Shown here in pieces: positions 1 through 17,570 of a DNA stretch of 17,570 nucleotides (positions are counted from its first letter, which is position 1; every line of letters begins with the position of its first letter). The DNA is from Armatimonadota bacterium (GTDB lineage Bacteria; Sysuimicrobiota; Sysuimicrobiia; Sysuimicrobiales; Humicultoraceae): NCBI GenBank assembly GCA_037443365.1, contig JBBIOM010000037.1, positions 1-17,570 of the forward strand, in the 5' to 3' direction. The position numbers and the translations under genes are program-made. Under the pieces are notes generated by a model. That model searched no databases. It was given only the letters and a program-made list of their open reading frames with translations, and was not told the DNA's origin.

Positions 1-82
1 CCACGAACCGCCCAAAGGTGTTGCCGCCCAACCCCAGCACGGAGACCTTGAGCCCTGAGCTCCCAAGCCGACGGTAGATCAT
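1..82 (-). CDS. Aldo/keto reductase, 5' fragment (runs off the left edge of the window)
   Basis: Manual translation from ATG at 82 gives MIYRRLGSSGLKVSVLGLGGNTFGRFV, the typical AKR N-terminus (YRxLGxSGLKVSxLGLG). AGGAGGAG Shine-Dalgarno at 91-98. Confidence 0.9.
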   Translation of the reverse strand, partial: MIYRRLGSSGLKVSVLGLGGNTFGRFV

Positions 83-112
83 CGATGCTTCTCCTCCTGG
101 CCTCTCCGGCCG

Positions 113-525
113 CTACATTGCCTCGTTGAACTCATCCCGGTACTTCACCAACGCCGGATGCGCCCTCCATACGGGCCCGGTTGAGCAGAATGACCATGAA
201 CGCCTCGTCCGGAACGCCATCCCACCGCGACGGCAGGCCGTGTTGCGAGGCGGGCTTGAATCCGAAGCGCGGGTATCACTCGGGGTCGCCGATCACGATC
301 ACGAGCGTGCATGACTCCCCCTTAGGATGTCAATCCCTTACCAGGGCCGATCCGATCCCCTTGCGCCGAGACTCCGGCATGACGATCATCGGCGCGAGCA
401 CCATGCCGGTAAGGGGCCATGAGCCCGCCTTCGATGCCGGCTTCGTCGGGGTGTTCGAAGACGCTCTCGTTGACCGCCCTCATGGCCAACATGCTTTCGG
501 GTCGCTCCTTGCGCACGGTGACTAC
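113..525 (-). pseudogene. YhbS-like GNAT N-acetyltransferase pseudogene
   Basis: Fragments in different frames: VTVRKERPESMLAMRAVNESVFEHPDEA; GMVLAPMIVMPESRRKGIGSALVR (acetyl-CoA motif A); VIVIGDPE*YPRFGFKPAS...VPDEAFMV; VKYRDEFNEAM*. TGA stops at 330-332 and 276-278, several frameshifts, a probable internal deletion, and GTA where the start codon should follow a GGAGG SD. Confidence 0.85.
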
Positions 526-1336
526 GGCCGCCCTCCAGGCCGTACACCAGCAGCTCACCGCATGAGATCGTGACCGCCTGGCCCCCCATCAAGATGCGCT
601 CCCCTCTCAGGTGGATGTGGGGCACGCCGCCGCGCTCCGAAGCCTGGAAAGCCACCAGGCGGCCCTTCTCGAGCCGCTTCCCCCAGAACGGCCCGGGGGC
701 GCAGTGCGCCGACCCCGTGACGGGGGCCTCATCTATGCCCACCCAGGGCGCAAAGTAGCGGGAGACGAAGTCGTGCCGCGGCGAGGCCGAGGCGCTAGTG
801 ACGGCCACCCCTCTCCCTGGCATCGCCCGCAGCGAGGCGAAGTCAGGGCAGAGGCAGCGCACAGTCTCCTCGGAGTCAACCTCTATGAGGTGCTTGCTCC
901 CAAACATGCCGACATACCTGGGCATCACGCCCAGGGCTGCGAGCAGCCCCTCGGGGGCATCAGATGGCTCCGCCGGGGTGGCGGGAAAGACGATCTCGAT
1001 CAGACCGTCCCCCTTGCGTTCGGCCGTGAGCAACCCGCTGCGCGTGTGGAAACGGGCCAGCTGTCCGGGCCCGAGCAGATCCTCCTGCCAGGGCACTTGC
1101 GCGCCCGCCAGCGTGGCGTGGCCGCAGAGGTCTACCTCGACCTTCGGGGTAAACCGGCGCAGGGAGTAGCCGTCGTACTGCTCGAGGAGGAAGGCTGTCT
1201 CCGACAGGTTCATCTCGCACGCCACTTGCTGCATCCAGATGTCCGCACGCGGCTCGGGCAGAAGACAGACGGGCGCAGGGTTTCCCGCGAACGGCTCACT
1301 GGTAAACGCATCAACCTGAAACAGCCTGATTGCCAA
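386..1336 (-). CDS. PhzF-family isomerase/epimerase, probably decaying (expected end near 542; the frame reads through to 386)
   Basis: TTG at 1336 after an AGGAGG SD. Motifs QVDAFT..FAGNPA, EMNLSETAF, FTPKVEVDLCGHATLA, SRYFAP..GIDEAPVTGSAHC. Family similarity ends at GELLV, followed by TAC (542-544) instead of a stop. Confidence 0.88.
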   Translation of the reverse strand: MAIRLFQVDAFTSEPFAGNPAPVCLLPEPRADIWMQQVACEMNLSETAFLLEQYDGYSLRRFTPKVEVDLCGHATLAGAQVPWQEDLLGPGQLARFHTRSGLLTAERKGDGLIEIVFPATPAEPSDAPEGLLAALGVMPRYVGMFGSKHLIEVDSEETVRCLCPDFASLRAMPGRGVAVTSASASPRHDFVSRYFAPWVGIDEAPVTGSAHCAPGPFWGKRLEKGRLVAFQASERGGVPHIHLRGERILMGGQAVTISCGELLVYGLEGGRSHRAQGATRKHVGHEGGQRERLRTPRRSRHRRRAHGPLPAWCSRR

Positions 1337-1379
1337 GGTGTCCTCCTTCCGGGGGCTTCTTCGGTTCTTGCTCCCGCCC

Positions 1380-1762
1380 GCGCCATCAGCCCTGCCCAAC
1401 GGACAAAGCCAGCACCGTCCGACATCATTGCCACCAAGTTCTTCCGCATGCCGTGGAGATCTCCCCTTGCGGTATCCCGCAGCCACGGTGGCAGTCGGCT
1501 TGACCTATCTCGCGGCGAGGCGGGGGCGCAGGAGGACCGGGCCTCCCTGCATGGCGCATGCAGAGATCAGCGGCTTGGGCACGAAGTACTCCTGGCGCTC
1601 GAAGCGGGCTCCGATCTCTGTCATGGTCGGGGTCATCCATCGAGAGATGATCTCTTCTGGGGGAATGCCCTCGGCAAGCGCAGCAGCCACCAGCTCTTTC
1701 CTCCTCTCGAGATCTCCCTCCACGATGGCGTCAAGGATGTCGTCGAGATCTGGTAGAGATAT
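1380..1762 (-). pseudogene. Corrinoid (cobalamin-binding) protein pseudogene, MtaC/MttC- or MetH-B12-domain-like
   Basis: Cap domain DILDAIVEGD...ALAEGIPPEEII...MTEIGARFERQEYFVP..LISACAMQ, then TAG at 1505-1507, a frameshift, and RGDLHGMRKNLVAMMSDGAGF (degenerate GDxHDIGKNLVxMMLEGAGF). Most of the Rossmann domain is missing. ATA stands in place of ATG at 1762 after GGAGG. Confidence 0.85.
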
Positions 1763-1955
1763 CTGTTGGGGCCCTCCGGTCTATTTGGAGTACGGGAAGT
1801 CAGTGCACGGGGCCGCGTCGCCGAGCTGTCTCCCTGGCACTCCTCGGCCAGGCACCCGGAGTGGTTCTTCGCAGCCGGTGCTCCCGATTCCTCAACTGCG
1901 GGCTCGCGGGAGACGTGAGCCGATGCTCGATCCTGATGGTTCTTTGGTCGCGGCC

Positions 1956-2891
1956 CTATGCGGGGCGGGATGCCTCCATCCCGCGAGTCATGGGCTCCAG
2001 CACAGAGCGCAGATCCCTCATCTCAGCCTCTGGAAGTGGGCGCAGCGGCGGGCGGACGTGCGGCTCGATGACCCCGCGCAGGCCTAACGCCGCTTTGATG
2101 TGGGGAACCGAAGCGCCGTTCTGCAGCATGCAGCATACCGCGGATACGTGTCGGTACGCCTCTCTTACGTCCAGCCAAGACCCGCGCTCGGCCGCCCGCC
2201 ACAGCGCCACATAGGGCTCCGGCACTGCGGCCGCAGGCCCTGATATCGTACCGGCCCAACCCATTGCGGCTACCGAAGGAAGGAGCAGATCGGCGCCTAC
2301 CAGGATTCGGAAGCCCGGGCCGCCGGCTTCGGACAGCAATCGTATACCATACAGGTCCCCGGTGCTGTCCTTCATGCCGACCAGGTTGGGGTGGCCGAGC
2401 AGCGCCCGGACCACAGAGGGAGTCAAATGGTTGCCCGTGTGCTGCGGGATGTTGTAGAGCAGCACTGGGTGATCGGGCACCGTGCTGGCCACCGCGGAGA
2501 AGTGAGCAATCAACCCTTCTTCGCTATGTCGGAAGTAGGAGGGCGTGATGATCGCCAGCGCGTCGGCGCCGGCCTCCGCTGCCAGCCGGGCGGTGGCGAT
2601 GGTCCCAGCGGTCGTTATCCCGCCGACCTGCGCGACAACAGGTACACGGCCCGCGGATGCTGTCACCGCCGCACGCAGCACGCCCATCCGATCCCCATCA
2701 TCGAGCAGTGGCCCCTCGCCGGTCGTCCCGCAGGCGAAGATCCCGTCCACACCCCGGTCCACCAGCCATTGGACGAGACGGCGCGCCCTCGGGGCGTCCA
2801 CGCTGCCGTCGGAAGACATTGGGGTCGGGAGGGCAACGATCACCCCTCTCAGATTCTCAACGACCTCGCGCCGAATACCCATCGCTGTCAA
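1956..2891 (-). CDS. DapA/NAL-superfamily class I pyruvate aldolase (probably not a true DHDPS)
   Basis: 311 aa. ACGTTGEG motif, LLYNIP catalytic Tyr, GMKDS Schiff-base Lys. TTG start after GGAGGA (alternative ATG at 2882). Confidence 0.92.
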   Translation of the reverse strand: MTAMGIRREVVENLRGVIVALPTPMSSDGSVDAPRARRLVQWLVDRGVDGIFACGTTGEGPLLDDGDRMGVLRAAVTASAGRVPVVAQVGGITTAGTIATARLAAEAGADALAIITPSYFRHSEEGLIAHFSAVASTVPDHPVLLYNIPQHTGNHLTPSVVRALLGHPNLVGMKDSTGDLYGIRLLSEAGGPGFRILVGADLLLPSVAAMGWAGTISGPAAAVPEPYVALWRAAERGSWLDVREAYRHVSAVCCMLQNGASVPHIKAALGLRGVIEPHVRPPLRPLPEAEMRDLRSVLEPMTRGMEASRPA

Positions 2892-2918
2892 GCATCCTCC
2901 CAGCGGCCGGCATGGCCC

Positions 2919-3551
2919 CTACATGTCACTTACGTGGCTGTAGAGCCCTCTCACAATCAGCACCCCCACGGTAGCGCCCGGGTCCTGCATGTCCCGGGAT
3001 CGCTCTCCGTAGTAGGCAGGCCTCCCGTGTCTTGCGACCATCTGCTTCGTGGACTCCAGCCCTGCCTCCGCGGCTTCCAGGGCCCGCGCAAGGGCCAGCT
3101 CCATCTCCACGTCTCCGGCGGCGGCCAAGGCATCCGCGGCCGGCTTCAGGGAATCGACGATCGTCTTCTCGCCTGCCTGCGCCTTGCCCCTCTCCATGAT
3201 TCCGTTGACGAATGCCTGGAAGAACGCCGCCAATTCGCCGGTGGCAAGTTCCTCCGAGCCGGCAATCGCTCTTCCACCTCGCATGAACCCTGTAGCAACG
3301 AGGGTACCCATCGTGGATGGCGCGGCTTTGGCCATGGCCATCCCGGCCCTGGTCAGGATCTTGCCAATGTCCGTCTCCTTGGCCCCCGCGACCTCTTCGT
3401 AGGCGGCGCTGAATGCCCTGGGCATTGTGAGGCCGAGATCTCCATCGCCAAGAGCAGCGTCCAGATCTGTTAGGTGTTGCTTATGCTCCTCCATGAGGGC
3501 GGCGAGGCGCCCCAGGGCTGCAACCACGTCATCCTTGCGCAACGGCCTCAT
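2919..3551 (-). CDS. dhaL: Dihydroxyacetone kinase-family nucleotide-binding subunit (DAK2)
   Basis: 210 aa. LTDLDAALGDGDLG, RGKAQAGEKTIVD, ARHGRPAYYGERS..QDPGAT motifs. Confidence 0.93.
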   Translation of the reverse strand: MRPLRKDDVVAALGRLAALMEEHKQHLTDLDAALGDGDLGLTMPRAFSAAYEEVAGAKETDIGKILTRAGMAMAKAAPSTMGTLVATGFMRGGRAIAGSEELATGELAAFFQAFVNGIMERGKAQAGEKTIVDSLKPAADALAAAGDVEMELALARALEAAEAGLESTKQMVARHGRPAYYGERSRDMQDPGATVGVLIVRGLYSHVSDM

Positions 3552-3561
3552 CGCCGGCGAC

Positions 3562-4575
3562 CTAGGTGGGCAGTTGCGGCTGCACGAAGAACGGCGTGCT
3601 GGCCGGTCGAGCCAGGAGTTCTCTCATCTCGTCGTCCAGCCTCATCAGGGAGATTGAGAAGCCCGCCATCTCCATCGATGTGGCGAACTCCCCAACATAG
3701 ATGTGATAGGCACGGATTCCACGCTCTGCCAGGACAGCATGTGCCTTCCGATAGATGATGTACAGCTCTTCCCTCGCCGTACCTCCGAGGCCGTTGACTA
3801 GCACTGAGACCTCATCGCCCGCCCGGAACGGAAGATCTTCGAGAACCGCTATCATCATCTCGTCCACCACATCGTCGGCTGGCCGCAGCTTCCCTCGCCT
3901 GATCCCGGGCTCGCCGTGGATACCCATGCCGATCTCCATCTCGTCTTCGCCGATGGTAAAAGTGGGTCTGCCGACCTCGGGGATGATGCAAGGCGTGAGT
4001 GCTACGCCGATTGTGCGCACATTCGCGGCGGCTTTGTCGGCGACCCGTTTGACCTCATCCAGGCCGGCTAGTTCGTCCGCCTTCGCTCCGGCCACTTTGT
4101 AGACATAGAAGATCCCGGCCACCCCTCGGCGCCGGCGCTCCTCGTCCTTGGGAGCGGAGGCAACGTCGTCGGTGGCCACCAGCGACTCCACACGGATGCC
4201 GTCGGCGGCCGCCATCTCGGCCGCGAAGTCGAAGTTCAGCACATCTCCGCCGTAGTTGCCGTAGATGTACAACACACCCGCGCCCGCATCGATCGCCTTC
4301 GTGACCTTCAACATCTGCTCTGCGCTCGGTGATTGAAACACACCTCCCACCGAGCACCCATCGAGGAGCCCGTCGCCGACGTACCCTAGGAAGAGAGGAA
4401 GATGACCTGAGCCCCCGCCGGTGGCAAGGCCTACTTTCCCTTCCCTCCTGGGGCCGGCCTTCACTATGCAGCGCAGATCGTCGGCCACATACGCGAGCTG
4501 GCCCGGATGGGCGCTTACAATGCCCTGTATCATCTCGTCGACGAATCCATCGGGGTTGTTGAGGAACTTCCTCAT
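3562..4575 (-). CDS. dhaK: Dihydroxyacetone kinase-family substrate-binding subunit (DAK1)
   Basis: [16 protein letters not shown]-terminus. [29 protein letters not shown] and TSMEMAG motifs. ATG at 4575 fits the AGGAG spacing; an alternative ATG at 4581 overlaps the tctA stop. Confidence 0.93.
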
Positions 4576-4577
4576 CG

Positions 4578-6068
4578 TCATCGCTCCTTGTCTTGCCTGG
4601 AACGCTGCCATGCGGCAAGCCCCAGGGCCACGACGCTGGCACCGAGCAGTGTAGCGGCGATCGGCTCCCCCACAAGAATCCCCCAATCTCCCGCCGACAT
4701 CGCCAGCGACCGCCGGAGGTTGGACTCCGCGATCGGGCCGAGAATCAGCCCCAGCACCAGCGGCCCCGGCGGGAACCCCTGCCGCCGGAGCGCCACGCCA
4801 AGTACACCCGCAATCAGCATGAGCCACACGTCGTGCGCCGAGTTGTTTAGCGCGTAGGTGCCGACGGCGCACGAGGCCAGCACGATGGCCCACAGACGCC
4901 CGCGGTTCAGCCCAACGATCCACCTCACGATGCCCCGGGCGCGCACTACGCTAAGCAGGCCGCTGATGATGGTGGCGGCAATGCAGATCCCGACGATTTC
5001 GTAGAAGAGAGGCAGGTGATCCCGAAAGAACAGCGGCCCGGGCTTCAGACCCCAGATCAGCAGAATCCCGATCAACACAGCCGTGACCGTGTCGCCGGGC
5101 ACACCCAGCGCAAGCGTGGTGGCCAGCGCGCCGCCGACAATCGAGTTGTTGGCGGTCTGCGCCGCCACCAGGCCCTCCAGACTGCCTTTTCCGAACTCCT
5201 CCGGCCGCTTGGAGATACGCTTCGCCTGATCCCATGACAGGATGCTGGCGATGTCCCCACCGGCCCCGGGAATCGCGCCGACCACGGTGCCGATTGCTGA
5301 GGAAAGGAAGAAGGCCGGCGCCACTTGTCGCACCTCGGCGCGCTTTGGCATCAGTCGTCCCAGGACGCCTGTTACCGCCGAGAGTCCGGCGACCAGAGTC
5401 CGCCGCTGCAACACCTGGTCGAGTACCTCCGCTACGCCGAAGATGCCGATCATGATTGGGATAAACGAAAGACCGCTCAGCAGTTCGGGCTTGCCAAAGG
5501 CGAAGCGAGGGTAGCCGACGATTGGGTCAAACCCTACGGTGGCCAGCAACATGCCCAACAGACCCACCAACAGACCCTTGACCACCGACATACCGGAGAC
5601 GCTAACCATCATTGATAGCCCGAACAACGCCAACGCGAAGTACTCCGGCGGTCCAAACCGTAGCGCGAAGTTCGCCAGCGGGATAGCCACGAGCGCCAGT
5701 GTGATCAAGCCGAACAGGCTGCCGCCTGCGGAGGCGAGCGCATTGATCCCCAGCGCCAGGCCGGCCCTTCCCTGCTTCATCATGGCGTAGCCGTCGAAGG
5801 TCACGGCAATGCTGGCGGGCGTGCCGGGCATGTTTATCAGAATCGCGGTGATGTCCCCTCCGAACATTGCCGCGATGTAGACGCCCAAGATGATCGCCAG
5901 CCCCTGCGCGGGTGGGAATCGAAACGCGAGCGGGGTCAGCAGCGCCACACCCATAGTGGCGGTGAGACCCGGAACGATGCCGAAGAACATCCCCAGCGCC
6001 ACACCCAGGAGCAGATAGGGCAACAGCGACGGCGAGAAGGCGGCCAGGAACCCGTCCAGGGGAGACAT
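4578..6068 (-). CDS. tctA: Tripartite tricarboxylate transporter large membrane subunit
   Basis: 496 aa, highly hydrophobic. GIVPGLTATM, ILINMPGTPAS, TFDGY, FGPPEYF, GAIPGAGG, LALGVPGD signatures. Confidence 0.95.
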   Translation of the reverse strand: MSPLDGFLAAFSPSLLPYLLLGVALGMFFGIVPGLTATMGVALLTPLAFRFPPAQGLAIILGVYIAAMFGGDITAILINMPGTPASIAVTFDGYAMMKQGRAGLALGINALASAGGSLFGLITLALVAIPLANFALRFGPPEYFALALFGLSMMVSVSGMSVVKGLLVGLLGMLLATVGFDPIVGYPRFAFGKPELLSGLSFIPIMIGIFGVAEVLDQVLQRRTLVAGLSAVTGVLGRLMPKRAEVRQVAPAFFLSSAIGTVVGAIPGAGGDIASILSWDQAKRISKRPEEFGKGSLEGLVAAQTANNSIVGGALATTLALGVPGDTVTAVLIGILLIWGLKPGPLFFRDHLPLFYEIVGICIAATIISGLLSVVRARGIVRWIVGLNRGRLWAIVLASCAVGTYALNNSAHDVWLMLIAGVLGVALRRQGFPPGPLVLGLILGPIAESNLRRSLAMSAGDWGILVGEPIAATLLGASVVALGLAAWQRSRQDKER

Positions 6069-6074
6069 GAGGCG

Positions 6075-6500
6075 CTATATCCCGTCCAAGGGAACCCGTA
6101 GCACGTATCCAAACGCCACGGACAAGAACGCGGTCACGAGCGCGGCGAAGAGGAGCGCCGATCCCCAGCGGCCGGGGCCAGACAGACGTGAGAGTGCCGC
6201 TACATACAGCACGGTAGGCACGTCGAAGCGCCATCGGTGCCACGCCACGAGGTAGACCGCGGTTAGGCCCACAACGCCGACCGCGGCAGCGACATCTGTT
6301 CGCTCAGCAGCCGATATTGCCTTGCGTCTACGCCCCTCTACTATCAGCAAGCCGGTCAGCAGGGCAAGCGATGCTGCTAGCAGCCGTGGGTAGGACGCCG
6401 GGCTGAGAGAGCCCTCCGCGCCCGGAGGAAAAGGCACCGTCAATACGAAGACCGCAGCGGCGAGCAGCGTGAATGCCGCGGCCGCAAGCAGATCCTTCAT
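6075..6500 (-). CDS. tctB: Tripartite tricarboxylate transporter small membrane subunit
   Basis: 141 aa with about four hydrophobic segments, an SPASYP motif and C-terminal FGYVLRVPL. Lies between tctC and tctA. Confidence 0.88.
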   Translation of the reverse strand: MKDLLAAAAFTLLAAAVFVLTVPFPPGAEGSLSPASYPRLLAASLALLTGLLIVEGRRRKAISAAERTDVAAAVGVVGLTAVYLVAWHRWRFDVPTVLYVAALSRLSGPGRWGSALLFAALVTAFLSVAFGYVLRVPLDGI

Positions 6501-6519
6501 CTCCTGCTACCGATGCGAA

Positions 6520-7482
6520 CTAGCGCGCCAGCCCTAGGTCCCTCATCAGGCGACCAAACATCTCGTACTGAGCCAGGGCGAACTTCTTGAACTCGGCCGG
6601 CGGCAGGTAGCCCGGCTCAATCCCCCTGGCCACCAGGCCTCGCTGAACCTCCGAAGTCGTGTATGCCCGCCGGAACGCGCGGTGGAGGATATCGAGAACC
6701 TCTGCCGGCGTACCCTTGGGCAGCGCGAAGCCGCCCCAGGCCATGACGACCACGTCGTGCCCTGCCTCCCGAATCGTGGGCACATCCAGCATGAGCCCGA
6801 AGCGCTGCTCGCCCATCACGCCCAGGGTGCGGAGCCGTCCCGCCTCCACATGGGGCAGGACCTCGCTGGGGCTCACGGTCACCGCTGCCAGACGCCCTCC
6901 CAACAGCGCGGTGATAGCCGGGGCCGCACCATCGAAGGGCACATGCCTGAGGCGAGTCCCGGTAGCCCGCTCCAGTGATGCCGCAGCCACGTGCCAGATG
7001 GATCCAGGCCCCGAATTCCCAACGGTCAGCTCGCCCGGCCTGGCGCGGGCAGCGGCCACGAAGTCGGCCACCGTCCGGTATGGCGAGTCGACATGGACGG
7101 TAAGCCCGGCCGGCAGCACGTTTGCCCTCATCAGCAGGTCGAAGTCGTCGGGGTGAAGATCAGCCAGGCCCAGGTGCTTCAGCATGGACAACTCCACCGG
7201 AACGTACCCGATCGTGTAGCCGTCAGGACGGCTCGCCTTGACCGATCCCATTCCCACGGCGCCGCCGCCGCCCACGCGGTTGACGACGTTGATGCGCGCC
7301 CCCAAGATCGGCGCAGCCTGAGTTGCCACCAGCCGCGAGACGTAATCGGACGCTCCTCCTGGCGCGGCCTGCACCACCAACGTAATGTCCCGTACCGGAT
7401 AGGTGACCTGGGCGCCGCTGGGGACGGCAAATAGCACGGCCACCAACAACGCCAGTAACGAGATGCCAGTCAGTCTCTTCAT
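6520..7482 (-). CDS. tctC: Tripartite tricarboxylate transporter substrate-binding protein (Bug/TctC family)
   Basis: 320 aa. Signal peptide, YPVRDITLVV.AAPGGASD, VVNRVGGGGAVG, PDGYT, GNSGPGSIWH, HVPFDG. GAGGAGG SD at 7491-7497. Confidence 0.95.
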   Translation of the reverse strand: MKRLTGISLLALLVAVLFAVPSGAQVTYPVRDITLVVQAAPGGASDYVSRLVATQAAPILGARINVVNRVGGGGAVGMGSVKASRPDGYTIGYVPVELSMLKHLGLADLHPDDFDLLMRANVLPAGLTVHVDSPYRTVADFVAAARARPGELTVGNSGPGSIWHVAAASLERATGTRLRHVPFDGAAPAITALLGGRLAAVTVSPSEVLPHVEAGRLRTLGVMGEQRFGLMLDVPTIREAGHDVVVMAWGGFALPKGTPAEVLDILHRAFRRAYTTSEVQRGLVARGIEPGYLPPAEFKKFALAQYEMFGRLMRDLGLAR

Positions 7483-7565
7483 ACCAACGCCCTCCTCGCT
7501 CCTTGAATGTCCCTACAATGGCGAACCCCGATTGAGTCAACTGATCGTTCAGGCGTGCCGTAGGT

Positions 7566-7582
7566 CTGAGAACGTTATCATA
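7566..7582. promoter_or_regulatory. Putative LacI-family operator upstream of tctC
   Basis: CTGAGAACGTTATCATA, an imperfect palindrome with central CG. Its reverse complement matches 11838-11854 at 15 of 17 positions. Confidence 0.75.
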
Positions 7583-7604
7583 CCCCAATACACTTCAGCG
7601 ACAA
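7577..7604 (-). promoter_or_regulatory. Putative sigma70-type promoter for the tct-dha-aldolase operon
   Basis: Minus strand: TTGTCG (7604-7599), 16-bp spacer, TATGAT (7582-7577). The -10 overlaps the operator. Confidence 0.55.
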
Positions 7605-7793
7605 CATCGTCTTCCTCGATGGTGTGTTGCATTCTCACCGAGCGGGCAGGAATCCTCCCACCGGTCCAGGCGGGTCGCCGCTTCCACGTGCGGGTTCCAA
7701 GCGATCTGACAGGAACGGGGAGAACGCGGATGGAAGCTGGAGAACACTGGCGTACCGCTACTATCACATGCGGCAAGGAACCGAGGGGGCGGC

Positions 7794-8708
7794 GTGATCT
7801 CAGTCGCAGTAGTAGGTAGTCTAAACATGGACTTGGTTGTCCAAGTTCCACGTCTCCCTGCTGTCGGAGAGACGGTCGGTGGTGGTGTGCTCGGGCGCTT
7901 CCGTGGCGGAAAGGGTGCCAACCAGGCTGTGGCAGCTGCGCGCCTGGGGAGCCGCGTGGCCATGGTCGGCCGCGTGGGCGACGACGCCTTCGGCCGCGAG
8001 ATTCTGGATGGACTGCGGGACGAGGGGGTTGACCTGTCGCATACGCCCGCGCAGCCAGGGGCTGCGACCGGCGTAGCCCTCATCGGCGTGGATCGCCAGG
8101 GGCAGAACATAATACTGGTAGCCCCTGGTGCCAACGCGGAGTTGACCACGCGCGATGTGCAAGAGGCCCGTCACGCGATCCTTGCTGCCGACGTACTCCT
8201 GCTTCAGCTTGAGATCCCCATGGAACCGATCCTGACCGCCGCGCACATAGCCCGCGGTGCGGGTGTTCTGGTCTGCCTGGACCCGGCTCCTGCGCTGGCA
8301 CTGCCTGATGACCTCTACCGGATGGTCGATGTCCTGAACCCCAACGAGGTGGAAGCCGCAGCACTTGCCCGGCTGCCGGCGGGAACCATCGAAGAGGTGC
8401 GCAGTGCTGCAAGGTCCTTGAGTAACCTCGGGCCGCGAACTGTCGTTGTGACGATGGGAAGGCACGGCGCGTTCTACCTCTCCAGCGATGAAGAAGGCCA
8501 CATGCCCGCGCATCCGGTGACCGCAGTGGATGCCACCGCTGCTGGCGACGCCTTTGCCGCGGCTCTGGGCGTCGGCCTGGCCGAAGGGAAGCCGCTGCCC
8601 GAGGCCGTGCGGTTCGCTAACTTGACAGCAGGCCTCAAGGTTGCCCGCATGGGTGCCCAGTCCATGCCCACACGTGCTCAAGTAGATGCCCTCCTGCGAG
8701 GGGCCTAG
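7794..8708 (+). CDS. rbsK: Ribokinase (PfkB family)
   Basis: 304 aa. VVGSLNMDLV, GGKGANQAVAAARLG, GRVGDDAFG, LQLEIP, NPNEVEA, DATAAGDAF. Confidence 0.93.
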   Translation: MISVAVVGSLNMDLVVQVPRLPAVGETVGGGVLGRFRGGKGANQAVAAARLGSRVAMVGRVGDDAFGREILDGLRDEGVDLSHTPAQPGAATGVALIGVDRQGQNIILVAPGANAELTTRDVQEARHAILAADVLLLQLEIPMEPILTAAHIARGAGVLVCLDPAPALALPDDLYRMVDVLNPNEVEAAALARLPAGTIEEVRSAARSLSNLGPRTVVVTMGRHGAFYLSSDEEGHMPAHPVTAVDATAAGDAFAAALGVGLAEGKPLPEAVRFANLTAGLKVARMGAQSMPTRAQVDALLRGA

Positions 8709-10360
8709 CGCGGCGGCCATGGGTTGAGAGGCGCGCGCCCCGCGCGCAACCGCTTCATGACCCCGGTCCCGCTTTCGCCGAAGTGTCGCGCCAGGTCCAG
8801 GTAATCCCGGTACAGTGCCTCGTAGGCATGCTGCTCTGCGGGCCGCGGCCTGTAGGCAACCCTCACCCGGCTGCCCATGCGCCTGACGGCTTCCTCCATC
8901 GTGGCGTACCCGCCGTGCCCCTCCCCGGCGGCGGCCGCGGCGTAGATCGCCGCGCCGAACGCGGAGGCGTGCGGCACGCGCGCGGCGAGCACCTCCCGGC
9001 CCGTGACATCGGCGGTAATCTGCAGCAGGAGCGGGCTGCGCTCGGCCAGGCCCCCGCACGCGTGCACCTCGCCGACCCCCACCCCCCCGGCCTCAAAGAT
9101 GTCAATCACCCTGCGCGTGCCGAAGACCGCCGCCTCGAGCAGCGCGCGGTAGATCTCGTGCTGCCCGGTGGCGATCGTGAGCCCGACCATCACGCCGGAG
9201 AGGTCGGCGTCCACAAGTGGGGTCCGGCAGCCGTTCCACCAGTCCAGCGCCAGCAGGCCCGACGCCCCTGCCCCCAGACGCGCGGCCTCGCCTTCCAGCC
9301 GCGCGAACGCCGCGGCCTCGCCCTCGGGGTCGGCGGCGTGAGTGCGCACATACCAGCCGAAGATGTCGCCGAACGATGTCTGCCCGGCCTCGTATCCGAA
9401 CAGCCCCGGGAGGATCCCGTCCTCCACGACGCCGCAGATGCCCTGCACGCTGCGCCGGTGCGTGTCAACCAGCAGGTGGCAGGCGGAGGTACCCATGATG
9501 GTAACGAGCTTCCCGGGGCCACCAACACCCACGGCGGGCAGCGCGGCGTGCGCGTCTATCACGGCTACGGCCACCGGTGTGCCCGCGCGCAGCCCGGTGC
9601 GCCCGGCCCAGGCCTCCAGCAGACCCCCGGCCCTGGAGGCCACGGGCCGGGGAGGTGGGCCAAGTTTCTCCAGGAATGACGGCAGGTCGGGATGCAGCGA
9701 CGCCCAGTACGAGGCCGGTGGATGGCCGACATCCTTCTGCCAGTGCGCCTTGTACCCGGCCTGGCAGGCGCTGCGCGCCTCGACGCCGGTAAGCTGCCAG
9801 ATGACCCAGTCCCCGCCCTCTATCCATCTGTCCGCGGCGCGGGCGATCCCTGGCGCCTCGTCCAGCACCTGCCAGCCCTTCGCCCACAGCCACTCGGAGG
9901 AGGTCTTCCCGCCGTAGTGCGCCAGGAACCCGCCCCCGGGCCGGTCCGCGGCGGCGTTGATGCGGTCGGCATAGGGCTGCGCGGCATGGTGCTTCCAGAG
10001 CATGGGCCAGGCATGGGGCAGGCCCCGGTAGTCCTCCAGCAGGCACAGCGGCGTGCCGTCCGCGAGTGTCGGGAGCACGGTGCACGATGTGAAGTCAATG
10101 CCGATGCCGGCAATCGCATCGGGTGGCGCGGCGGTCGCCATCGCCCGCAGGAGGGTCTCCAGCGCCAGCACCCAGTCGCCGGGATGCTGCAGCGCCCAGT
10201 CGGGCGGCAGCCGCGCTCCGGCGTCCGGCAGCGCGCGGTCTATCACGCCGTGGGGATACGCGAACGTGGCCGTGGCGGCCAGGCGGCCGTCGGAGATCCC
10301 GACCAGCACCGCGCGCGCCGATTCGGTTCCAAAGTCAAGGCCGATGGCGTACCGATCCAT
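8705..10360 (-). CDS. araB: Ribulokinase (FGGY family, AraB-like)
   Basis: ATG at 10360, 551 aa. YAIGLDFGTESARA, WALQHP.DW, GIGIDFTSCT, WKHHAAQ, YGGKTSSEW, IDAH, IMGTSACH, EAGQ, LDWWNGCRTPL. Confidence 0.92.
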   Translation of the reverse strand: MDRYAIGLDFGTESARAVLVGISDGRLAATATFAYPHGVIDRALPDAGARLPPDWALQHPGDWVLALETLLRAMATAAPPDAIAGIGIDFTSCTVLPTLADGTPLCLLEDYRGLPHAWPMLWKHHAAQPYADRINAAADRPGGGFLAHYGGKTSSEWLWAKGWQVLDEAPGIARAADRWIEGGDWVIWQLTGVEARSACQAGYKAHWQKDVGHPPASYWASLHPDLPSFLEKLGPPPRPVASRAGGLLEAWAGRTGLRAGTPVAVAVIDAHAALPAVGVGGPGKLVTIMGTSACHLLVDTHRRSVQGICGVVEDGILPGLFGYEAGQTSFGDIFGWYVRTHAADPEGEAAAFARLEGEAARLGAGASGLLALDWWNGCRTPLVDADLSGVMVGLTIATGQHEIYRALLEAAVFGTRRVIDIFEAGGVGVGEVHACGGLAERSPLLLQITADVTGREVLAARVPHASAFGAAIYAAAAAGEGHGGYATMEEAVRRMGSRVRVAYRPRPAEQHAYEALYRDYLDLARHFGESGTGVMKRLRAGRAPLNPWPPR

Positions 10361-10389
10361 GCGCCTCGCCCCGTTCTCCCGCCGGAGGA

Positions 10390-11805
10390 CTACGCGAACA
10401 CGCGGCAGTCCATCCCCAGGATCTTGCTGATCCAGACGAGTTCCTGGACGTAGTCCCCGTACACGCCGTGTATGTGGTTGCTGTCGTACTCGCCGATGAA
10501 CTCGTCTGGCGGCACGCGAAGCCGCGCGAACGCGTGCGGCCACTCGGGTGTGGTCGCGGCCGCCTTGCCCCAGGCCACCTCCTCCGGGAACTCGACGAAC
10601 TCGGCAGGGATGATCGCCATCCAGTAGCGTCCCTGGCGGCGGGCCAGGCGGGCCAGCGTCACCTGGCCGGGGGCGGCGATGTGCGCCACCGAAGCGCCTC
10701 CGGCCGGGAAGTAGATGATCTCAGGGTAGAAGCGCACCCTGGGCAGGTTCACGGCCGGGTCGAACGAACGGCCGGCGAAGTAGGTGGCGTGCTGTCCGGA
10801 GTTGCACAGGTCCCAGACGTCATCCGCGGCATCGTAGTGGCGCACGTCGGCGAACAGCACGGGCGTGCCTGCGATGTGCTTGAGCAACTCCATGGTGAGC
10901 GCGCCGTCCATGTCGGCCTCGGTCGCGCAGACGATGGGATCGTGGGGCCCTTCCCAGTCGTAGGGGTCGTTCAGGAACGCCTCGGCCACGTCCATGGTGG
11001 CGAAGTGATCGGTCATCTCGGGCTGGCCCTTGATGCCGCAGAAGTCCAGGCGCCACTCGTCAACCAGGTCGCGCACCGCGTGGTAGGAGCGGATCTGGCG
11101 CTTCAGCAACTCGGGCGTCAGCTTCTTGCCGTCGTAGTGGATCTGTCCCACGTGCTTCTCGAGCCAGCGGAAGCCGGCCTCCACGCGGTCCGCCGCCACC
11201 AGCTCCGACCTGCGCACGATCTCGAACTGGTCTATGTGCTCGACGTCAATGCCAAACTGCCGCTGCCACTGGTCGAGCGGGCTCGCCGCGGTGTACATGC
11301 CCATGGAGCGGCCGCCGATGAGCCCGTAGGTCTCTCCGCGCAGCCAGCGGGTCGCCGCGGCCGCGCGCAGGAACTGCAGCACGCGCGTGAAGACCGCGTC
11401 GTCACCCGCGTCGCCCGAGACGCGGGCGCAGAATGTTCCCAGCTGGTCGAGCGTCCCGGCGCTGGCCAGCATGCTCACCAGGCCCGGGTACTGCGGGTTC
11501 ACGTTGCTGAACATCAGGAAGGGCCCGGGCGCGAACTGGCTCGCGATCGCCGTCAGGTGCGGGAAGCTCCAGATGGCGAAGTTGAAGATCGTGGCGTCCA
11601 CGCGCTCGGAGGCCAGGTACTGCGCCTCGCTCTTGGCCAGGTCGGTGGTCCAGACGATGTCGCGGCCGGTAACGACCTCCCATCCGGCCTCGCGCAGCCG
11701 CCGCGCCAGACGGCCTTCGAACTCGCGGGTCATCGGCAGCAGCTCCGAGTGCACGTGGCGCCGGCCGTCGGAGAACGTCAGAATGCCGACCTTAGGGGTG
11801 CGCAT
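10390..11805 (-). CDS. L-fucose/D-arabinose isomerase-family protein (short FucI-like form)
   Basis: 471 aa. DGRRHVH, GGRSMGM, GIKGQPEMTDH, AEAFLNDPYDW, ATEADMDGALTM, FADVRHY, LCNSGQH, VTLARL, WPHAF, SNHIHGVYGD. GGAGG SD. Confidence 0.9.
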   Translation of the reverse strand: MRTPKVGILTFSDGRRHVHSELLPMTREFEGRLARRLREAGWEVVTGRDIVWTTDLAKSEAQYLASERVDATIFNFAIWSFPHLTAIASQFAPGPFLMFSNVNPQYPGLVSMLASAGTLDQLGTFCARVSGDAGDDAVFTRVLQFLRAAAATRWLRGETYGLIGGRSMGMYTAASPLDQWQRQFGIDVEHIDQFEIVRRSELVAADRVEAGFRWLEKHVGQIHYDGKKLTPELLKRQIRSYHAVRDLVDEWRLDFCGIKGQPEMTDHFATMDVAEAFLNDPYDWEGPHDPIVCATEADMDGALTMELLKHIAGTPVLFADVRHYDAADDVWDLCNSGQHATYFAGRSFDPAVNLPRVRFYPEIIYFPAGGASVAHIAAPGQVTLARLARRQGRYWMAIIPAEFVEFPEEVAWGKAAATTPEWPHAFARLRVPPDEFIGEYDSNHIHGVYGDYVQELVWISKILGMDCRVFA

Positions 11806-11837
11806 TTCCTGCCTCCCTCCACACGTGGCCAGCCGAT

Positions 11838-11854
11838 TGTGATAACGCTCTCAG
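11838..11854. promoter_or_regulatory. Putative LacI-family operator between the isomerase operon and the divergent repressor gene
   Basis: TGTGATAACGCTCTCAG, resembling the TGnnAnCGnTnnCA LacI-family pattern. Second copy of the 7566-7582 site. Confidence 0.75.
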
Positions 11855-11996
11855 TAATCAGCGTTCGGCGGGCAGAGCGGAAATCCTGCCCACGGGCGCG
11901 TTCGTGCCCCGGGCCGCTCATGCCCCGGGCCCGGAAGGCCCTGGGGTCGCCCTTGCTCACCAGGAGGGACGTTCGCATGGGTCGAAGCCAGGGAGC

Positions 11997-13007
11997 GTGG
12001 TTACGATCCGCGACGTGGCCCGGCTTGCCGGCGTCTCCATGGCCACCGCCGCCCGCGCGCTGGGCGGCTACGGCTATGCGAGCGAGAGCGCGCGCGAGAG
12101 GGTCGCGCGTGCAGCCAGCGCGCTGGACTACCACCCCAACGCCATCGCGCGCAGCATGATCAAGGGGCGCACCAACACCCTTGGGGTGATCGTCTCCGAC
12201 AACGCCAACCCGTTCTTCGCAGCCGTTGTGCGCGGGATCGAGGACGTGGTGCTGGCGCAGGGCTACGCCATCATCCTGTGCAACGCCGACGAGGACCCGA
12301 CCAAGGAGGCGATGTACGTAAGGACCATCCGGCAGAAGCGGGTGGATGGCCTGATCATCTCGCCCTCCGGCGGGGGGGTCGAGCTGCTGCGCGGGCTGCT
12401 CTCCGGCGGCATCCCGGTCGTCCAGGTGGACCGGCACCACGGCGGCCTGAAGGCCGACGCGGCCCTGATCGACAACCGTGCAGGCGTGCGCGCGGCGGTG
12501 GAGCACCTGATCCGCCTCGGGCATCGCCGCATCGGCATCATCAGCGGCCCCCGGCGCCTCTTCACCGGCCGAGAGCGCCTCGAAGCGTTTCTCGACGCGC
12601 TGCGGCGCGCGCGCATCAGGCCCAACGAGCGCTGGATCCTGGAGGGGACGTTCAAGGCACACAGCGGATACGAGATGGCCGGCCAGATCCTGCGGCTCCG
12701 CCGGCGTCCCTCCGCCCTGTTCGTGGCCAACAACCTGATGACAATCGGCGCACTGCTGCGCCTCAAGGAGGAGGGCATCGCCATCCCAAAGGAGATGGCC
12801 GTCGTGGGATTCGACGACATGGACTGGGCACCGGTGCTCACACCCCCGCTGACCGCGGTCGCTCAGCCGGGGTACGCGCTGGGCACGGTCGCGGCGCAGT
12901 TGCTCCTGCGCCGGCTGGCGGCGCAGCGCGGGGGGCCTCCACAAACCGTGGTCCTGCAGCCGCAACTCGTCGTGCGGGAATCCTGCGGCGCGGGGGCCCG
13001 CGCCTGA
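11997..13007 (+). CDS. LacI-family transcriptional repressor (start uncertain)
   Basis: VTIRDVARLAGVSMATAARAL helix-turn-helix, YHPNAIARSM hinge, NPFF, LIRLGHRRIG, VVGFDD, PPLTAVAQP. The in-frame GTG at 11997 has a poorly spaced SD. Confidence 0.93.
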   Translation: MVTIRDVARLAGVSMATAARALGGYGYASESARERVARAASALDYHPNAIARSMIKGRTNTLGVIVSDNANPFFAAVVRGIEDVVLAQGYAIILCNADEDPTKEAMYVRTIRQKRVDGLIISPSGGGVELLRGLLSGGIPVVQVDRHHGGLKADAALIDNRAGVRAAVEHLIRLGHRRIGIISGPRRLFTGRERLEAFLDALRRARIRPNERWILEGTFKAHSGYEMAGQILRLRRRPSALFVANNLMTIGALLRLKEEGIAIPKEMAVVGFDDMDWAPVLTPPLTAVAQPGYALGTVAAQLLLRRLAAQRGGPPQTVVLQPQLVVRESCGAGARA

Positions 13008-13011
13008 CTCC

Positions 13012-14955
<1,944 letters not shown>

Positions 14956-15019
14956 CGCCTGCGGCCCGGACCCGCTCGTTCAAGCGAGAAGCACGCGGTC
15001 TCCGAAGGGAGAACCGGTC

Positions 15020-16105
15020 GTGTCCGAATCGCGCGAAGCCGAATACGCCTTCTTCCAGAAGGGCGTCGCCCTGATGGATGACGCCATGCGGGGCTCGGCC
15101 CGACGCGTGCCCGTCTATGCCCAGATGCACGAGTTTGTTGCCGAGCAGTGCGGGATTCCTCGCCGAGAGTTCTTCGGGCGGCCCGAACTCCTGGTGTCGG
15201 CCACGCTCGACGTCCAGGCAAGATTTGGTCTGGACGTTCCAGCCATCACCTACGATGTCTACAACATCGAGGCCGAGGCGCTGGGGCAAGAGATCCAGTG
15301 GGGCGAAGCCGGGATGCCGGACATTGACCGAACCGCGCCCCTGATCCGCGACCGGTCCGATCTCTCGCGCATCCGGACGCCCGACTTCGATTCACAGCCG
15401 GCCTGTCGGCGCGTCCTGGAGATGCACGCCCACTTCCGGAGACTCACGGGGATCGAGCACGGGTTGAGCTTCTGCGCCCCCTTCACGCTGGCCACGAACC
15501 TGCGCGGCATCGAGCCGTTTCTCCTGGACGTCCGCACGGAACCAGGGTTCGCCCGAGAGCTCCTCTCCCGAATCACGGAGGATGTGCTGGCGCCCTGGAT
15601 CGCCTACCTGCAGCGCCATTTCCCACGCACCACCAGCATCACGGGAGTGGATGCCACCGCTTCCCCGCCCATCGTCAACCTGACCTTGCTCCGAGAGTGG
15701 GTGGCTCCCTCGATTCTCCGGCTCCGCGAGCTGTGTGGCCCGAAGGTCTCCGTGGCGAACTGGGCAGGTGAGCGCTACCTGAAGCGGCCCGAGGAGATGC
15801 TGGACCTCAAGCTTCTTGTCGGCCCAGGAACCCTCCTGGGGCAGGACCCGGATGTGGAGGCGCTGGGCCCTGCCTTCTACAGGGCCTATGCCGACCTTCA
15901 CGATGTGCCGCTGATCCTGGGGGTCGGTGCCGGCTTCCTGGCCCAGGAGCGGCCGGCGGCCGTCGCCGAGCGCGTGCGACGCTACGCCGCCGTGGGGGCG
16001 CGGGGCGGCCGGTTTGCCCTGTACCTCTGCAACCTGGGGGCAAACACGCCGCCGGAGAACCTCCGCGCAGCGATCGATGCGGCCCACGAAGTCGCCGTTG
16101 CGTAA
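15020..16105 (+). CDS. Uroporphyrinogen decarboxylase/MtaA-CmuA fold protein, function unknown
   Basis: GTG at 15020 after AAGGGAG, 361 aa. RRVPV, DVYNIEAEALG...P, APFTLATNLRG.E.FLLD...EP, C-terminal CNL..NTPPENLRA. Confidence 0.82.
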   Translation: MSESREAEYAFFQKGVALMDDAMRGSARRVPVYAQMHEFVAEQCGIPRREFFGRPELLVSATLDVQARFGLDVPAITYDVYNIEAEALGQEIQWGEAGMPDIDRTAPLIRDRSDLSRIRTPDFDSQPACRRVLEMHAHFRRLTGIEHGLSFCAPFTLATNLRGIEPFLLDVRTEPGFARELLSRITEDVLAPWIAYLQRHFPRTTSITGVDATASPPIVNLTLLREWVAPSILRLRELCGPKVSVANWAGERYLKRPEEMLDLKLLVGPGTLLGQDPDVEALGPAFYRAYADLHDVPLILGVGAGFLAQERPAAVAERVRRYAAVGARGGRFALYLCNLGANTPPENLRAAIDAAHEVAVA

Positions 16106-16126
16106 GGCCGGCCAGGGGGCAGGCGA

Positions 16127-17425: not shown

Positions 17426-17570
17426 TCAGACCTCCCCGGATTCGCGCCGGCTGCTCCCGCAGACCGCCGGACGCCCGCCCCCTACTTCATCGAGTCGGAT
17501 CACGGCTCCTGTCGGGTCTTCCGCCGCCTCCGCTCGCCCATCGGAGCGAACCACGCACCACGCGCCCGCC

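Follow-up and report, generated by a model that had tools for sequence, protein, structure and literature searches.

Kdo (3-deoxy-D-manno-octulosonic acid) occurs in nearly all Gram-negative lipopolysaccharides (LPS), in many capsules and in plant pectin, and a sugar this widespread must be turned over in large amounts. Its cleavage to pyruvate and D-arabinose is the reaction of Kdo aldolase (EC 4.1.2.23), an activity that Ghalambor and Heath reportedly purified in 1966 with no gene assigned. FucI isomerises D-arabinose and AraB accepts D-ribulose. For sialic acid, the nan clusters combine a sialidase, an importer (SiaPQM, SAT or NanT), the lyase NanA, NanK and NanE, and NanQ. According to a section of a 2023 paper (PMC10619137), no Kdo aldolase is annotated in Escherichia coli, and a passage published in 2025 still treats an endogenous Kdo aldolase as merely potential, citing the 1966 enzyme. 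No paper assigning genes to Kdo breakdown was found in our search, beyond which lay subscription journals and supplements, and a prior description is possible. Here we analyse a 17,570-bp stretch of bacterial DNA (hereafter the window), an entire contig from a 2.2 Mb genome of 69 contigs that is 97.7% complete, which carries a candidate LacI-controlled system for the breakdown of such an ulosonic acid. Close relatives of the source organism bear the record names Candidatus Fervidifonticultor and phylum Candidatus Sysuimicrobiota, while some source labels read Armatimonadota. Four DNA sequencing runs, all of one study, contain all or part of the stretch, and no RNA run containing it was listed.

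Gene identities were assigned from Pfam and NCBIfam profile scores, the latter with their equivalog cut-offs (Table 1). The original prediction had placed a tripartite tricarboxylate transporter (TTT), a DapA-family aldolase and DhaK/DhaL in one operon and a FucI-like isomerase with a ribulokinase in another, and every gene was found where it had been put. The tctC-tctB-tctA-dhaK-dhaL-aldolase genes are separated by intergenic gaps of 2–27 bp and are therefore read as one operon, and the profiles confirmed the isomerase-ribulokinase pair as the second. Ribokinase and LacI genes do adjoin these operons, each divergent from the first gene of its operon, and the convergent rbsK and araB genes overlap at their stop codons by 4 bases (window 8705–8708). 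The predicted lack of a dehydratase or dehydrogenase also held, no such domain being found in the open reading frames (ORFs) scanned within 1956–13007; a DAO-family oxidoreductase and a URO-D-like gene lie just outside.

This gene content suggests a regulon under LacI repression that serves to scavenge a free 3-deoxy-2-ulosonic sugar acid, with Kdo the likeliest candidate, a reading whose chances we judge to be evenly poised. In the proposed route, TctCBA would import the ulosonic acid, and the enzyme of the dihydrodipicolinate synthase (DHDPS)/N-acetylneuraminate lyase (NAL) family would form a Schiff base through its conserved lysine and cleave the acid to pyruvate and an aldose, which from Kdo would be D-arabinose. 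The FucI-like isomerase would convert D-arabinose to D-ribulose, and the AraB-type kinase would phosphorylate this to D-ribulose-5-phosphate, which would enter the pentose-phosphate pathway with no epimerase needed. A single repressor acting on the same 14-bp operator at both divergent promoters would jointly induce transport and cleavage (with rbsK) and the pentose branch (with lacI). DhaKL and the ribokinase would be accessory, likely capturing glyceraldehyde or tetroses from shorter ulosonates, and ribose or arabinose. Kdo is most likely the best-fitting substrate on the strength of the C8 = C3 + C5 arithmetic, the activity of FucI on D-arabinose and a link to glycoside hydrolase family 33 (GH33) in related loci. 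The genome showed no Kdo transferase domain, and any Kdo would accordingly be of external origin.

The operator proposed upstream of both operons was recovered in the form of TGAGAACGTTATCA and TGATAACGCTCTCA, which agree at 13 of 14 positions when one is taken as the reverse complement. With up to three mismatches allowed, the window contains no further match, and each of the two lies in a divergent intergenic region. Four strand-matches were counted against 0.94 expected, and four or more arose in 2 of 200 shuffles. Operator 1 sits 85 bp upstream of tctC and operator 2 sits 35 bp upstream of the isomerase gene; operator 1 shares four bases with the −10 hexamer of a minus-strand, promoter-like site, from a promoter scan that did not rise above chance. 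The lacI product combines a helix-turn-helix (HTH) with a sugar-binding domain, and the palindromic, CG-centred putative operator repeated at both promoters would suit a LacI family member. Its longest ORF begins at 11904 and the HTH match begins near 11997; the genome encodes five LacI paralogues. Across the whole genome, the operator pattern gave five exact and three one-mismatch sites, compared with one for a reversed control. The motif is also kept before the orthologous isomerase gene in five relatives (G030, G001, G092, G007 and G004; G, L and C numbers denote genomes, loci and contigs, respectively). In G030, which belongs to the same genus, an exact operator precedes the isomerase gene and a second exact copy lies between a gene encoding a BNR_2 domain and a DapA-family aldolase gene.

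The aldolase scores below every NCBIfam equivalog cut-off, with 187.6 against 206.15 for the DapA model TIGR00674, 138 against 281 and 115 against 382 for the NanA/NAL models NF003164 and TIGR00683, and 106.7 against 390 for the model of the archaeal 2-keto-3-deoxy(phospho)gluconate (KD(P)G) aldolase; its top NCBIfam and PDB matches are DHDPS. The Schiff-base lysine, the catalytic tyrosine and a GTTGE motif (GxTGE) are invariant in 28 aligned family members, and this core aligns to K165, Y137 and G46–E50 of E. coli NanA, with Gly189 and Asp191 also conserved. Glu192 and Ser208 of NanA, which we take to be contacts of the sialic-acid tail, are replaced in the family by Leu or Gly and by Gly, respectively. 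The YNIPQH sequence of the window protein aligns to YNVPGR or YDIPGR of solved DHDPS, which puts a histidine at the position of the DHDPS arginine (presumably E. coli R138, five residues after the catalytic tyrosine, which binds aspartate semialdehyde); the family consensus at this position is Leu, as in NanA. A stronger DapA is encoded elsewhere in the genome (contig C4, 320.8 bits to PF00701). In a quick tree of aldolase relatives from 80 genome loci, from which one locus was left out because its protein fell under a 230-aa length filter, the window protein lies inside a nine-member clade with 100% support, every member of which comes from the GH33, transporter and FucI-type contexts described below. 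FucI-linked aldolase relatives are spread across this tree; L103 and G090 have very long branches, probably from N-terminal trimming, and their positions were not used.

For the pentose branch, the isomerase matches PF07881, PF07882 and PF02952. Its best solved relative is the D-arabinose isomerase 3A9R, and the ATEAD...FADVR residues of the window protein align to ATEND...FADVR of that enzyme, Glu/Asp motifs that we take to correspond to catalytic E337/D361 of FucI. The protein falls far below the FucI equivalogs (93.5 against 775 and 77 against 850) and is shorter than the FucI architecture of ~590 aa. The kinase passes the ribulokinase model NF003154 and lies just under TIGR01234. AraD (L-ribulose-5-phosphate 4-epimerase) was not found in the 97.7%-complete genome, whose sole Aldolase_II match, at 48 bits, is MtnB-like and receives 16–17 bits from AraD models with cut-offs of 251–257. 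L-Ribulose-5-phosphate would thus be a dead end, and D-ribulose-5-phosphate, which needs no further enzyme, is the logical product. The pairing of FucI with a ribulokinase, when FucK, FucA and AraD are all missing, marks a route from D-arabinose to D-ribulose-5-phosphate.

Genes adjoining the isomerase-kinase pair in annotated relatives were considered as AraD candidates and identified instead as transaldolase/fructose-6-phosphate aldolase (TAL/FSA) proteins. At two loci (L122:2501-4113 and L124:7531-9122), the FucI-like-AraB operon has as its neighbours a PfkB kinase gene that runs divergently, an aldolase of the TAL/FSA type and a different ABC (ATP-binding cassette) system, with no GH33 gene and no DapA paralogue, so the isomerase-kinase pair is evidently reused in other sugar settings. 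In another genome of the same genus (G028:C39:1980-3392), the orthologous isomerase gene contains one in-frame TAG, either a sequencing error or the mark of a pseudogene.

A survey of 94 genomes of the phylum showed that the usual layout is a lacI gene divergent from FucI-like-AraB-ABC binding protein-two permeases-BNR_2, at times followed by a DapA-family aldolase or a ribokinase. DapA-family genes beside the isomerase are given here as individual adjacencies among the matches listed and do not form a tally. G030 keeps the window backbone, DAO-UroD-ABCF-LacI divergent from FucI-AraB, with an ABC-BNR_2-aldolase segment in place of rbsK and the TTT operon; its aldolase is of another DapA-family type, 31% identical to that of the window, and such another type adjoins a GH33-like gene in some genomes of the phylum. 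In G007, G004 and L029, lacI diverges from a FucI-like-AraB-(URO-D-like)-DctPQM operon, and an aldolase orthologue (71–78% identity) lies 4–6 kb from this operon beside a second DapA paralogue. G090 features two divergent operons, RbsK-BNR_2-ABC-AraB-FucI and LacI-TRAP-TTT-aldolase (TRAP, tripartite ATP-independent periplasmic transporter), while G004, G037 and G013 contain paralogous clusters of the form (AraB)-ABC-BNR_2-aldolase. The text of the Sysuimicrobiota paper makes no mention of arabinose, sialic, sialidase, lipopolysaccharide, monoderm or tricarboxylate. A B12-binding protein adjoins the aldolase in G004.

The context of the aldolase was then extended to the 80 loci, which encode relatives at 33–100% identity. 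BNR_2 genes are found in 30 of them, TRAP genes in 16 and TTT genes in five, with at least one of these in 51 of the 80, while a FucI-family gene is present in eight and an FGGY kinase gene in 13. Single operons that join the aldolase, a FucI-family isomerase, a pentulose kinase and TRAP, TTT or ABC plus GH33-like genes carry labels spanning at least four other phyla. These include FGGY-LacI-FucI-like (56%)-DctPQM-aldolase (L088, Clostridia label), LacI divergent from FGGY-FucI-like-BNR_2-aldolase-ABC (L094, Acidimicrobiales label) and LacI divergent from FucI-family-FGGY-aldolase-TctC-TctA (L103, Trueperaceae label). The parts are also united in one operon at L090 (Thermodesulfobacteriota label), where the kinase passes a pentulose-kinase model (583 against 408.7); the kinases of L088, L094, L103 and L160 are XylB-like and below cut-off. 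L092, arranged as LacI-ABC-PfkB-aldolase-DctPQM-AraB-FucI, features a true FucI (1039 bits against 775) beside a true ribulokinase (706 against 428). In L078 and similar Chloroflexota-labelled loci, a recurrent operon has the order IclR-BNR_2-aldolase-ABC-second DapA paralogue-short-chain dehydrogenase and includes neither an isomerase nor a kinase, which suggests that this lineage may oxidise the aldose product.

BNR_2 was not found in the source genome, and the locus therefore has no counterpart of the GH33 glycosidase of nan-type clusters. In the phylum, BNR_2 occurs in 21 of the 94 genomes, including the syntenic operon of G030; 20 of these 21 also have the isomerase, and in 10 genomes both genes share a contig and are no more than 7 kb apart. 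A structural model of the ~321-aa protein (pLDDT 94.6) was compared with the PDB using Foldseek: among the 43 matches listed (ranks 1–50), nearly all bear the name of a GH33 sialidase or neuraminidase, with a pseudaminidase included; the two named otherwise are a designed metalloprotein and one protein whose function is unknown. An identity as a GH93 arabinanase was rejected, as nearly all of these 43 listed matches are GH33 and none is named an arabinanase. Two arginines, the Glu-x-Ser-Tyr motif and the Asp-boxes are kept in the family alignment. An N-terminus read by eye, with no predictor, has no evident signal peptide, and the protein is thus probably cytoplasmic. According to part of one paper, the activities listed for GH33 include Kdo hydrolase and KDNase (PMC9120202), and part of another describes the catalytic subunit of a Francisella Kdo hydrolase as sialidase-like (PMC3573668). 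The sister-genome variant with an ABC importer and a cytoplasmic GH33-fold glycosidase would be predicted to import ulosonic-acid glycosides and hydrolyse them inside the cell.

The neighbour network takes in a glycosidase of the GH33 fold, three importer classes (two of which are specific for carboxylates), an aldolase of the NAL fold, an isomerase of the FucI family, pentulose kinases and a protein resembling NanQ. Judged from sequence, these parts point to the catabolism of a sialic-acid-like ulosonic acid that would yield a pentose, and Kdo would be the only common natural acid that fits. It is possible, and we propose it tentatively, that the DapA-family clade of the window gene is the long-missing Kdo aldolase (EC 4.1.2.23) and that the locus is one form of a widespread, as yet undescribed Kdo catabolic system. 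Such a system would combine a Kdo hydrolase of the GH33 type and an importer (ABC, TRAP or TTT) with the aldolase, a D-arabinose isomerase and a ribulokinase, and it would be found in Sysuimicrobiota and at loci that carry the labels Chloroflexota, Bacillota, Actinomycetota and Deinococcota, among others.

The window importer is a complete TTT, with adjacent tctA, tctB and tctC genes. An AF2 model of TctC (pLDDT 89.8) has TTT binding proteins as its nearest folds; the closest solved structure, 4X9T, is unliganded and other solved relatives bind unrelated carboxylates, so homology would support no ligand assignment narrower than "carboxylate". The closest TctC relatives are named Limnochordia or Bacillota, the nearest being 66% identical. 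DhaK falls below the TIGR02363 cut-off (370 against 406) and DhaL passes TIGR02365. No match to DhaM (EIIA-man, PF03610) was found in the 97.7%-complete genome, so the phosphoryl donor of a phosphoenolpyruvate-dependent DhaKLM kinase is missing and DhaKL is probably ATP-dependent. The rbsK product, the only close ribokinase homologue in the genome, passes TIGR02152, misses NF008353 (292.4 against 341) and scores 76 bits against a cut-off of 400 for 2-keto-3-deoxygluconate (KDG) kinase.

On metagenome contigs with relatives of the window TctC (41–57% identity), comparable TTT modules were found as a stand-alone LacI-ribokinase-like-aldolase-TctCBA-DhaK-DhaL operon (L157 and L158), as IclR-aldolase-HpcH-type aldolase-TctCBA-DhaKL-DUF386 (L149, L150 and L155) and as aldolase-LacI-TctCBA-RbsK (L151). 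DUF386 is the NanQ family, and RefSeq names NanQ as the N-acetylneuraminate anomerase of the E. coli nan operon. L160 (TctCBA-LacI-DhaKL-FGGY-true FucI) is the sole locus among these TTT modules with both FucI and an FGGY kinase, and in the Victivallales locus L039 a gene with a BNR_2 domain is followed by DhaK (67% identity)-DhaL-aldolase. DhaKL and the ribokinase are thus genuine recurrent partners of the TTT and aldolase, often without FucI or AraB.

Several observations weigh against a single route from Kdo to D-ribulose-5-phosphate. The isomerase occurs in 47 of the 94 phylum genomes (a tally that includes the unpublished genome G017) and the window-type aldolase, counted at E ≤ 1e-60, in six, so the pentose branch often stands without it. 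The aldolase orthologue of G007, G004 and L029 stands outside the nearby isomerase operon, and no operator within two mismatches was found at this orthologue. In G092 (96% complete), FucI-AraB-ABC-GH33 is accompanied by just one DHDPS-family gene, with no spare DapA paralogue, in tallies that include the unpublished genomes G017 and G025. Operator-like sites also lie at no fewer than three unrelated genomic loci (G000 C2:71690, C29:7378 and C62:4174, in addition to three one-mismatch sites); the extra sites are at or inside a ferredoxin/Hdr-like gene beside FolD/FTCD genes, near the 5′ end of a major facilitator superfamily gene and inside a peptide-type binding protein gene. The isomerase is only about 20–25% identical to characterised FucI, and its specificity could differ for that reason. 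In the BNR_2 family, an invariant histidine stands where sialidases have the first arginine of their triad (FCHG for FRIP, matched by spacing rather than superposition), and this family may represent a distinct substrate class. Finally, DhaKL has no necessary role between Kdo and D-ribulose-5-phosphate, though it is linked to the aldolase in L039 and the metagenomic TTT modules, and the recurrence of the ribokinase in those modules is left unexplained. The original prediction is thus partly supported. Its central idea, in which importer, aldolase and isomerase-kinase pair form one route acting on a preformed ulosonic acid, withstood the genome-neighbourhood check suggested with it: aldolase relatives do share operons with FucI-family isomerases and pentulose kinases across lineages, and the idea gains further from the conserved operator and the lack of AraD. 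A strict single-pathway reading loses from the counts within the phylum and from TTT-aldolase-DhaKL modules that mostly lack FucI and FGGY.

An arrangement of two separate modules under one repressor is unlikely in our view, if still a serious contender. TctCBA-aldolase-DhaKL (with RbsK) would then serve a shorter ulosonate, and the FucI-like/AraB pair a pentose arriving otherwise; KDG, for example, would be cleaved to pyruvate and D-glyceraldehyde, which DhaKL would convert to glyceraldehyde-3-phosphate, and a C7 homologue giving a tetrose is also possible. DhaKL would thereby gain a direct role, unlike in the Kdo route, and the L157 and L158 operons, the IclR-type modules (L149, L150 and L155) and the Victivallales DhaK-DhaL-aldolase genes are all in keeping with independence. 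So are the lower GC and GC3 (GC at third codon positions) of the left half of the window, as expected of a separately acquired module, the Limnochordia/Bacillota names on the closest TctC relatives, with the nearest 66% identical, and the majority of the 47 genomes, in which FucI/AraB lack a window-type aldolase. This arrangement is harder to reconcile with the closest aldolase orthologues (71–78%), which stand beside FucI-AraB-TRAP and not DhaKL, or with the joint recurrence of both modules in G090, L103 and L160. The PfkB gene scores as a ribokinase rather than a KDG kinase, and L039 ties DhaKL-aldolase to a BNR_2 domain, whereas KDG is, to our knowledge, not found as a glycoside.

If the substrate were instead another sialic-acid-like acid, such as 2-keto-3-deoxynononic acid (KDN), N-acetylneuraminic acid (Neu5Ac), pseudaminic or legionaminic acid or the rhamnogalacturonan II (RG-II) diacid Dha, the aldolase family would be a divergent N-acetylneuraminate lyase. 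The catalytic core held in common with NanA, the GH33-fold neighbours at 30 of the 80 loci, importers of the TRAP and ABC kinds found in nan clusters and the NanQ-like DUF386 gene of L155 would all suit this, yet no NanK, NanE or further ManNAc-processing domain turned up in the window or the annotated loci. Their partners are pentulose kinases and FucI-family isomerases, chemically unable to act on 2-acetamido sugars, and with the replacement of NanA Glu192 and Ser208 and the low NAL scores (138 against 281 and 115 against 382) this makes the proposal improbable. We give still less credence to an L-arabinose pathway with the FucI-like protein in place of AraA and an unrelated aldolase operon: the FucI and AraA families are related and the kinase passes an AraB (L-ribulokinase) model, but no AraD-type epimerase is present in the genome or beside the pair in annotated relatives, where the small neighbour is TAL/FSA, and operons that hold the pair also include carboxylate transporters, GH33-like genes and the aldolase. 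That the DHDPS-family gene is a biosynthetic DapA can be practically dismissed, even with DHDPS as its top NCBIfam and PDB matches, given a score of 187.6 against the 206.15 cut-off, the histidine in place of the DHDPS arginine, the 320.8-bit DapA on contig C4 and a location in a catabolic operon.

The composition of the window changes along its length, from GC 0.63–0.66 and GC3 0.76–0.81 in the PhzF-aldolase-DhaKL-TTT part (1–8000) to GC 0.68–0.72 and GC3 0.84–0.93 in the AraB-FucI-LacI part and beyond (8000–17570). This step suggests that the left module was acquired separately, and the lower GC and GC3 and the Limnochordia/Bacillota-type TctC relatives fit a later acquisition of the TTT-DhaKL-aldolase module. 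The PhzF gene lies on the same strand as the aldolase gene across a 470-bp gap, and is retained in L026, a 9096-bp contig of a metagenome-assembled genome labelled Anaerolineae whose RbsK-TTT-DhaKL-aldolase-PhzF stretch is 97–100% identical to that of the window. L029 is labelled Anaerolineaceae, yet its genes are 71–88% identical to Sysuimicrobiota ones. For both loci, the taxonomic labels or binning are probably wrong, or else transfer was recent.

On the other side, lacI is followed by an ABC-F gene, the URO-D-like gene and then the DAO oxidoreductase on the other strand, and the LacI-ABCF-UroD-DAO order is conserved in G030. URO-D-family genes recur around the system (window 14798-16105; L019:15174-16337; L029:1843-2982). 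A different URO-D-like protein of about 380–387 aa has its gene within the isomerase-kinase-TRAP operon in G004 and L029, and at 8 of the 80 loci it is encoded close to aldolase relatives; it has no Pfam or PDB match, and its likeness to URO-D comes from language-model features only.

Table 1. Genes and putative operators of the candidate ulosonate regulon and its flanks (window coordinates; profile scores are given against model cut-offs).
Feature	Position	Strand	Evidence or remark
TctC, periplasmic substrate-binding protein of TTT transporter	6520..7482	-	PF03401 E 2e-50
TctB, small membrane subunit of TTT	6075..6500	-	PF07331 E 2.3e-11
TctA, large membrane subunit of TTT	4578..6068	-	PF01970 E 2.9e-138
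DhaK, substrate-binding subunit of two-subunit Dha-type kinase	3562..4575	-	PF02733 E 7.5e-121; start placed at family-match start
DhaL, nucleotide-binding subunit	2919..3551	-	PF02734; TIGR02365 149.1 vs cut-off 138.3
Class I (Schiff-base) DHDPS/NAL-family pyruvate aldolase, candidate ulosonate (Kdo) aldolase	1956..2891	-	PF00701 E 2.3e-63
LacI-type putative operator 1, TGAGAACGTTATCA, tctC/rbsK intergenic	7567..7580	.	
PfkB-family ribokinase-like kinase (rbsK), divergent from tctC	7794..8708	+	TIGR02152 331.5 vs 299.65
AraB-type ribulokinase (FGGY)	8705..10360	-	NF003154 607.9 vs 428; TIGR01234 581.4 vs 583.25
Short (471 aa) FucI-family aldose-ketose isomerase, candidate D-arabinose isomerase	10390..11805	-	three Fucose_iso Pfam domains
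LacI-type putative operator 2, TGATAACGCTCTCA, isomerase gene/lacI intergenic	11840..11853	.	
LacI-family repressor, divergent from isomerase gene	11997..13007	+	LacI HTH + Peripla_BP; below cut-off for its closest models, PurR and RbsR
PhzF-family isomerase-like gene, downstream of aldolase, membership in system uncertain	386..1486	-	PF02567 E 3.5e-53
URO-D-like gene, start uncertain, syntenic neighbour, possibly connected	14798..16105	+	PF01208 E 7.7e-17
DAO-family oxidoreductase	16127-17425	opposite to lacI	

The locus is thus a candidate variant of the nan-type catabolon and a candidate source of a sequence for the orphan enzyme EC 4.1.2.23. If this is true, the orphan EC number gains a sequence and a second natural ulosonic-acid catabolon takes its place beside that for sialic acid. 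It would also provide a function for several large groups now annotated as "dihydrodipicolinate synthase family" and "sialidase family", and a substrate class for one TTT, one TRAP and one ABC binding-protein group. Bacteria could then feed on the conserved inner-core LPS sugar of other cells, which would illustrate how an uncultured phylum could include members that subsist on the necromass of neighbouring cells.

Among described systems, the nan clusters are comparable in their ulosonic-acid importer, their repressor control and a class I lyase of the NAL fold whose Tyr/Lys/GxTGE core is identical, and further in the GH33-fold glycosidase of sister loci and the NanQ-like DUF386 of one related module. 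In contrast, a FucI-family isomerase and a ribulokinase stand downstream here in place of NanK and NanE, the Glu192 and Ser208 of NanA are not kept, and the importer is a TTT, accompanied by DhaKL and a ribokinase. The D-arabinose route of E. coli is matched by a FucI-family isomerase paired with a ribulokinase, with no epimerase or FucA, and both FucI and AraB are bona fide at the related locus L092, whereas the window isomerase is short (471 aa) and distant and its pentose is proposed to arise intracellularly by aldol cleavage. The archaeal KD(P)G aldolase/KDG kinase branch of the Entner-Doudoroff pathway likewise combines a DapA-family aldolase with a PfkB kinase, and its glyceraldehyde would suit DhaKL, but the window PfkB protein is ribokinase-like, the aldolase reaches only 106.7 of the 390 bits of the archaeal model and there is no gluconate dehydratase. 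For the relatives' BNR_2 protein, the Kdo hydrolase KdhAB/KdoH of Francisella and Helicobacter, whose catalytic subunit is sialidase-like, offers a precedent for a sialidase fold acting on Kdo glycosides (PMC3573668). The Francisella/Helicobacter enzyme has a membrane partner and serves to trim LPS of the cell itself, whereas the BNR_2 protein is probably cytoplasmic, is encoded in a catabolic operon and is absent from the window. The predicted conversion of Kdo to pyruvate and D-arabinose by Kdo aldolase, an enzyme with no reference sequence for comparison, suits the pentose-handling partners of the aldolase described here.

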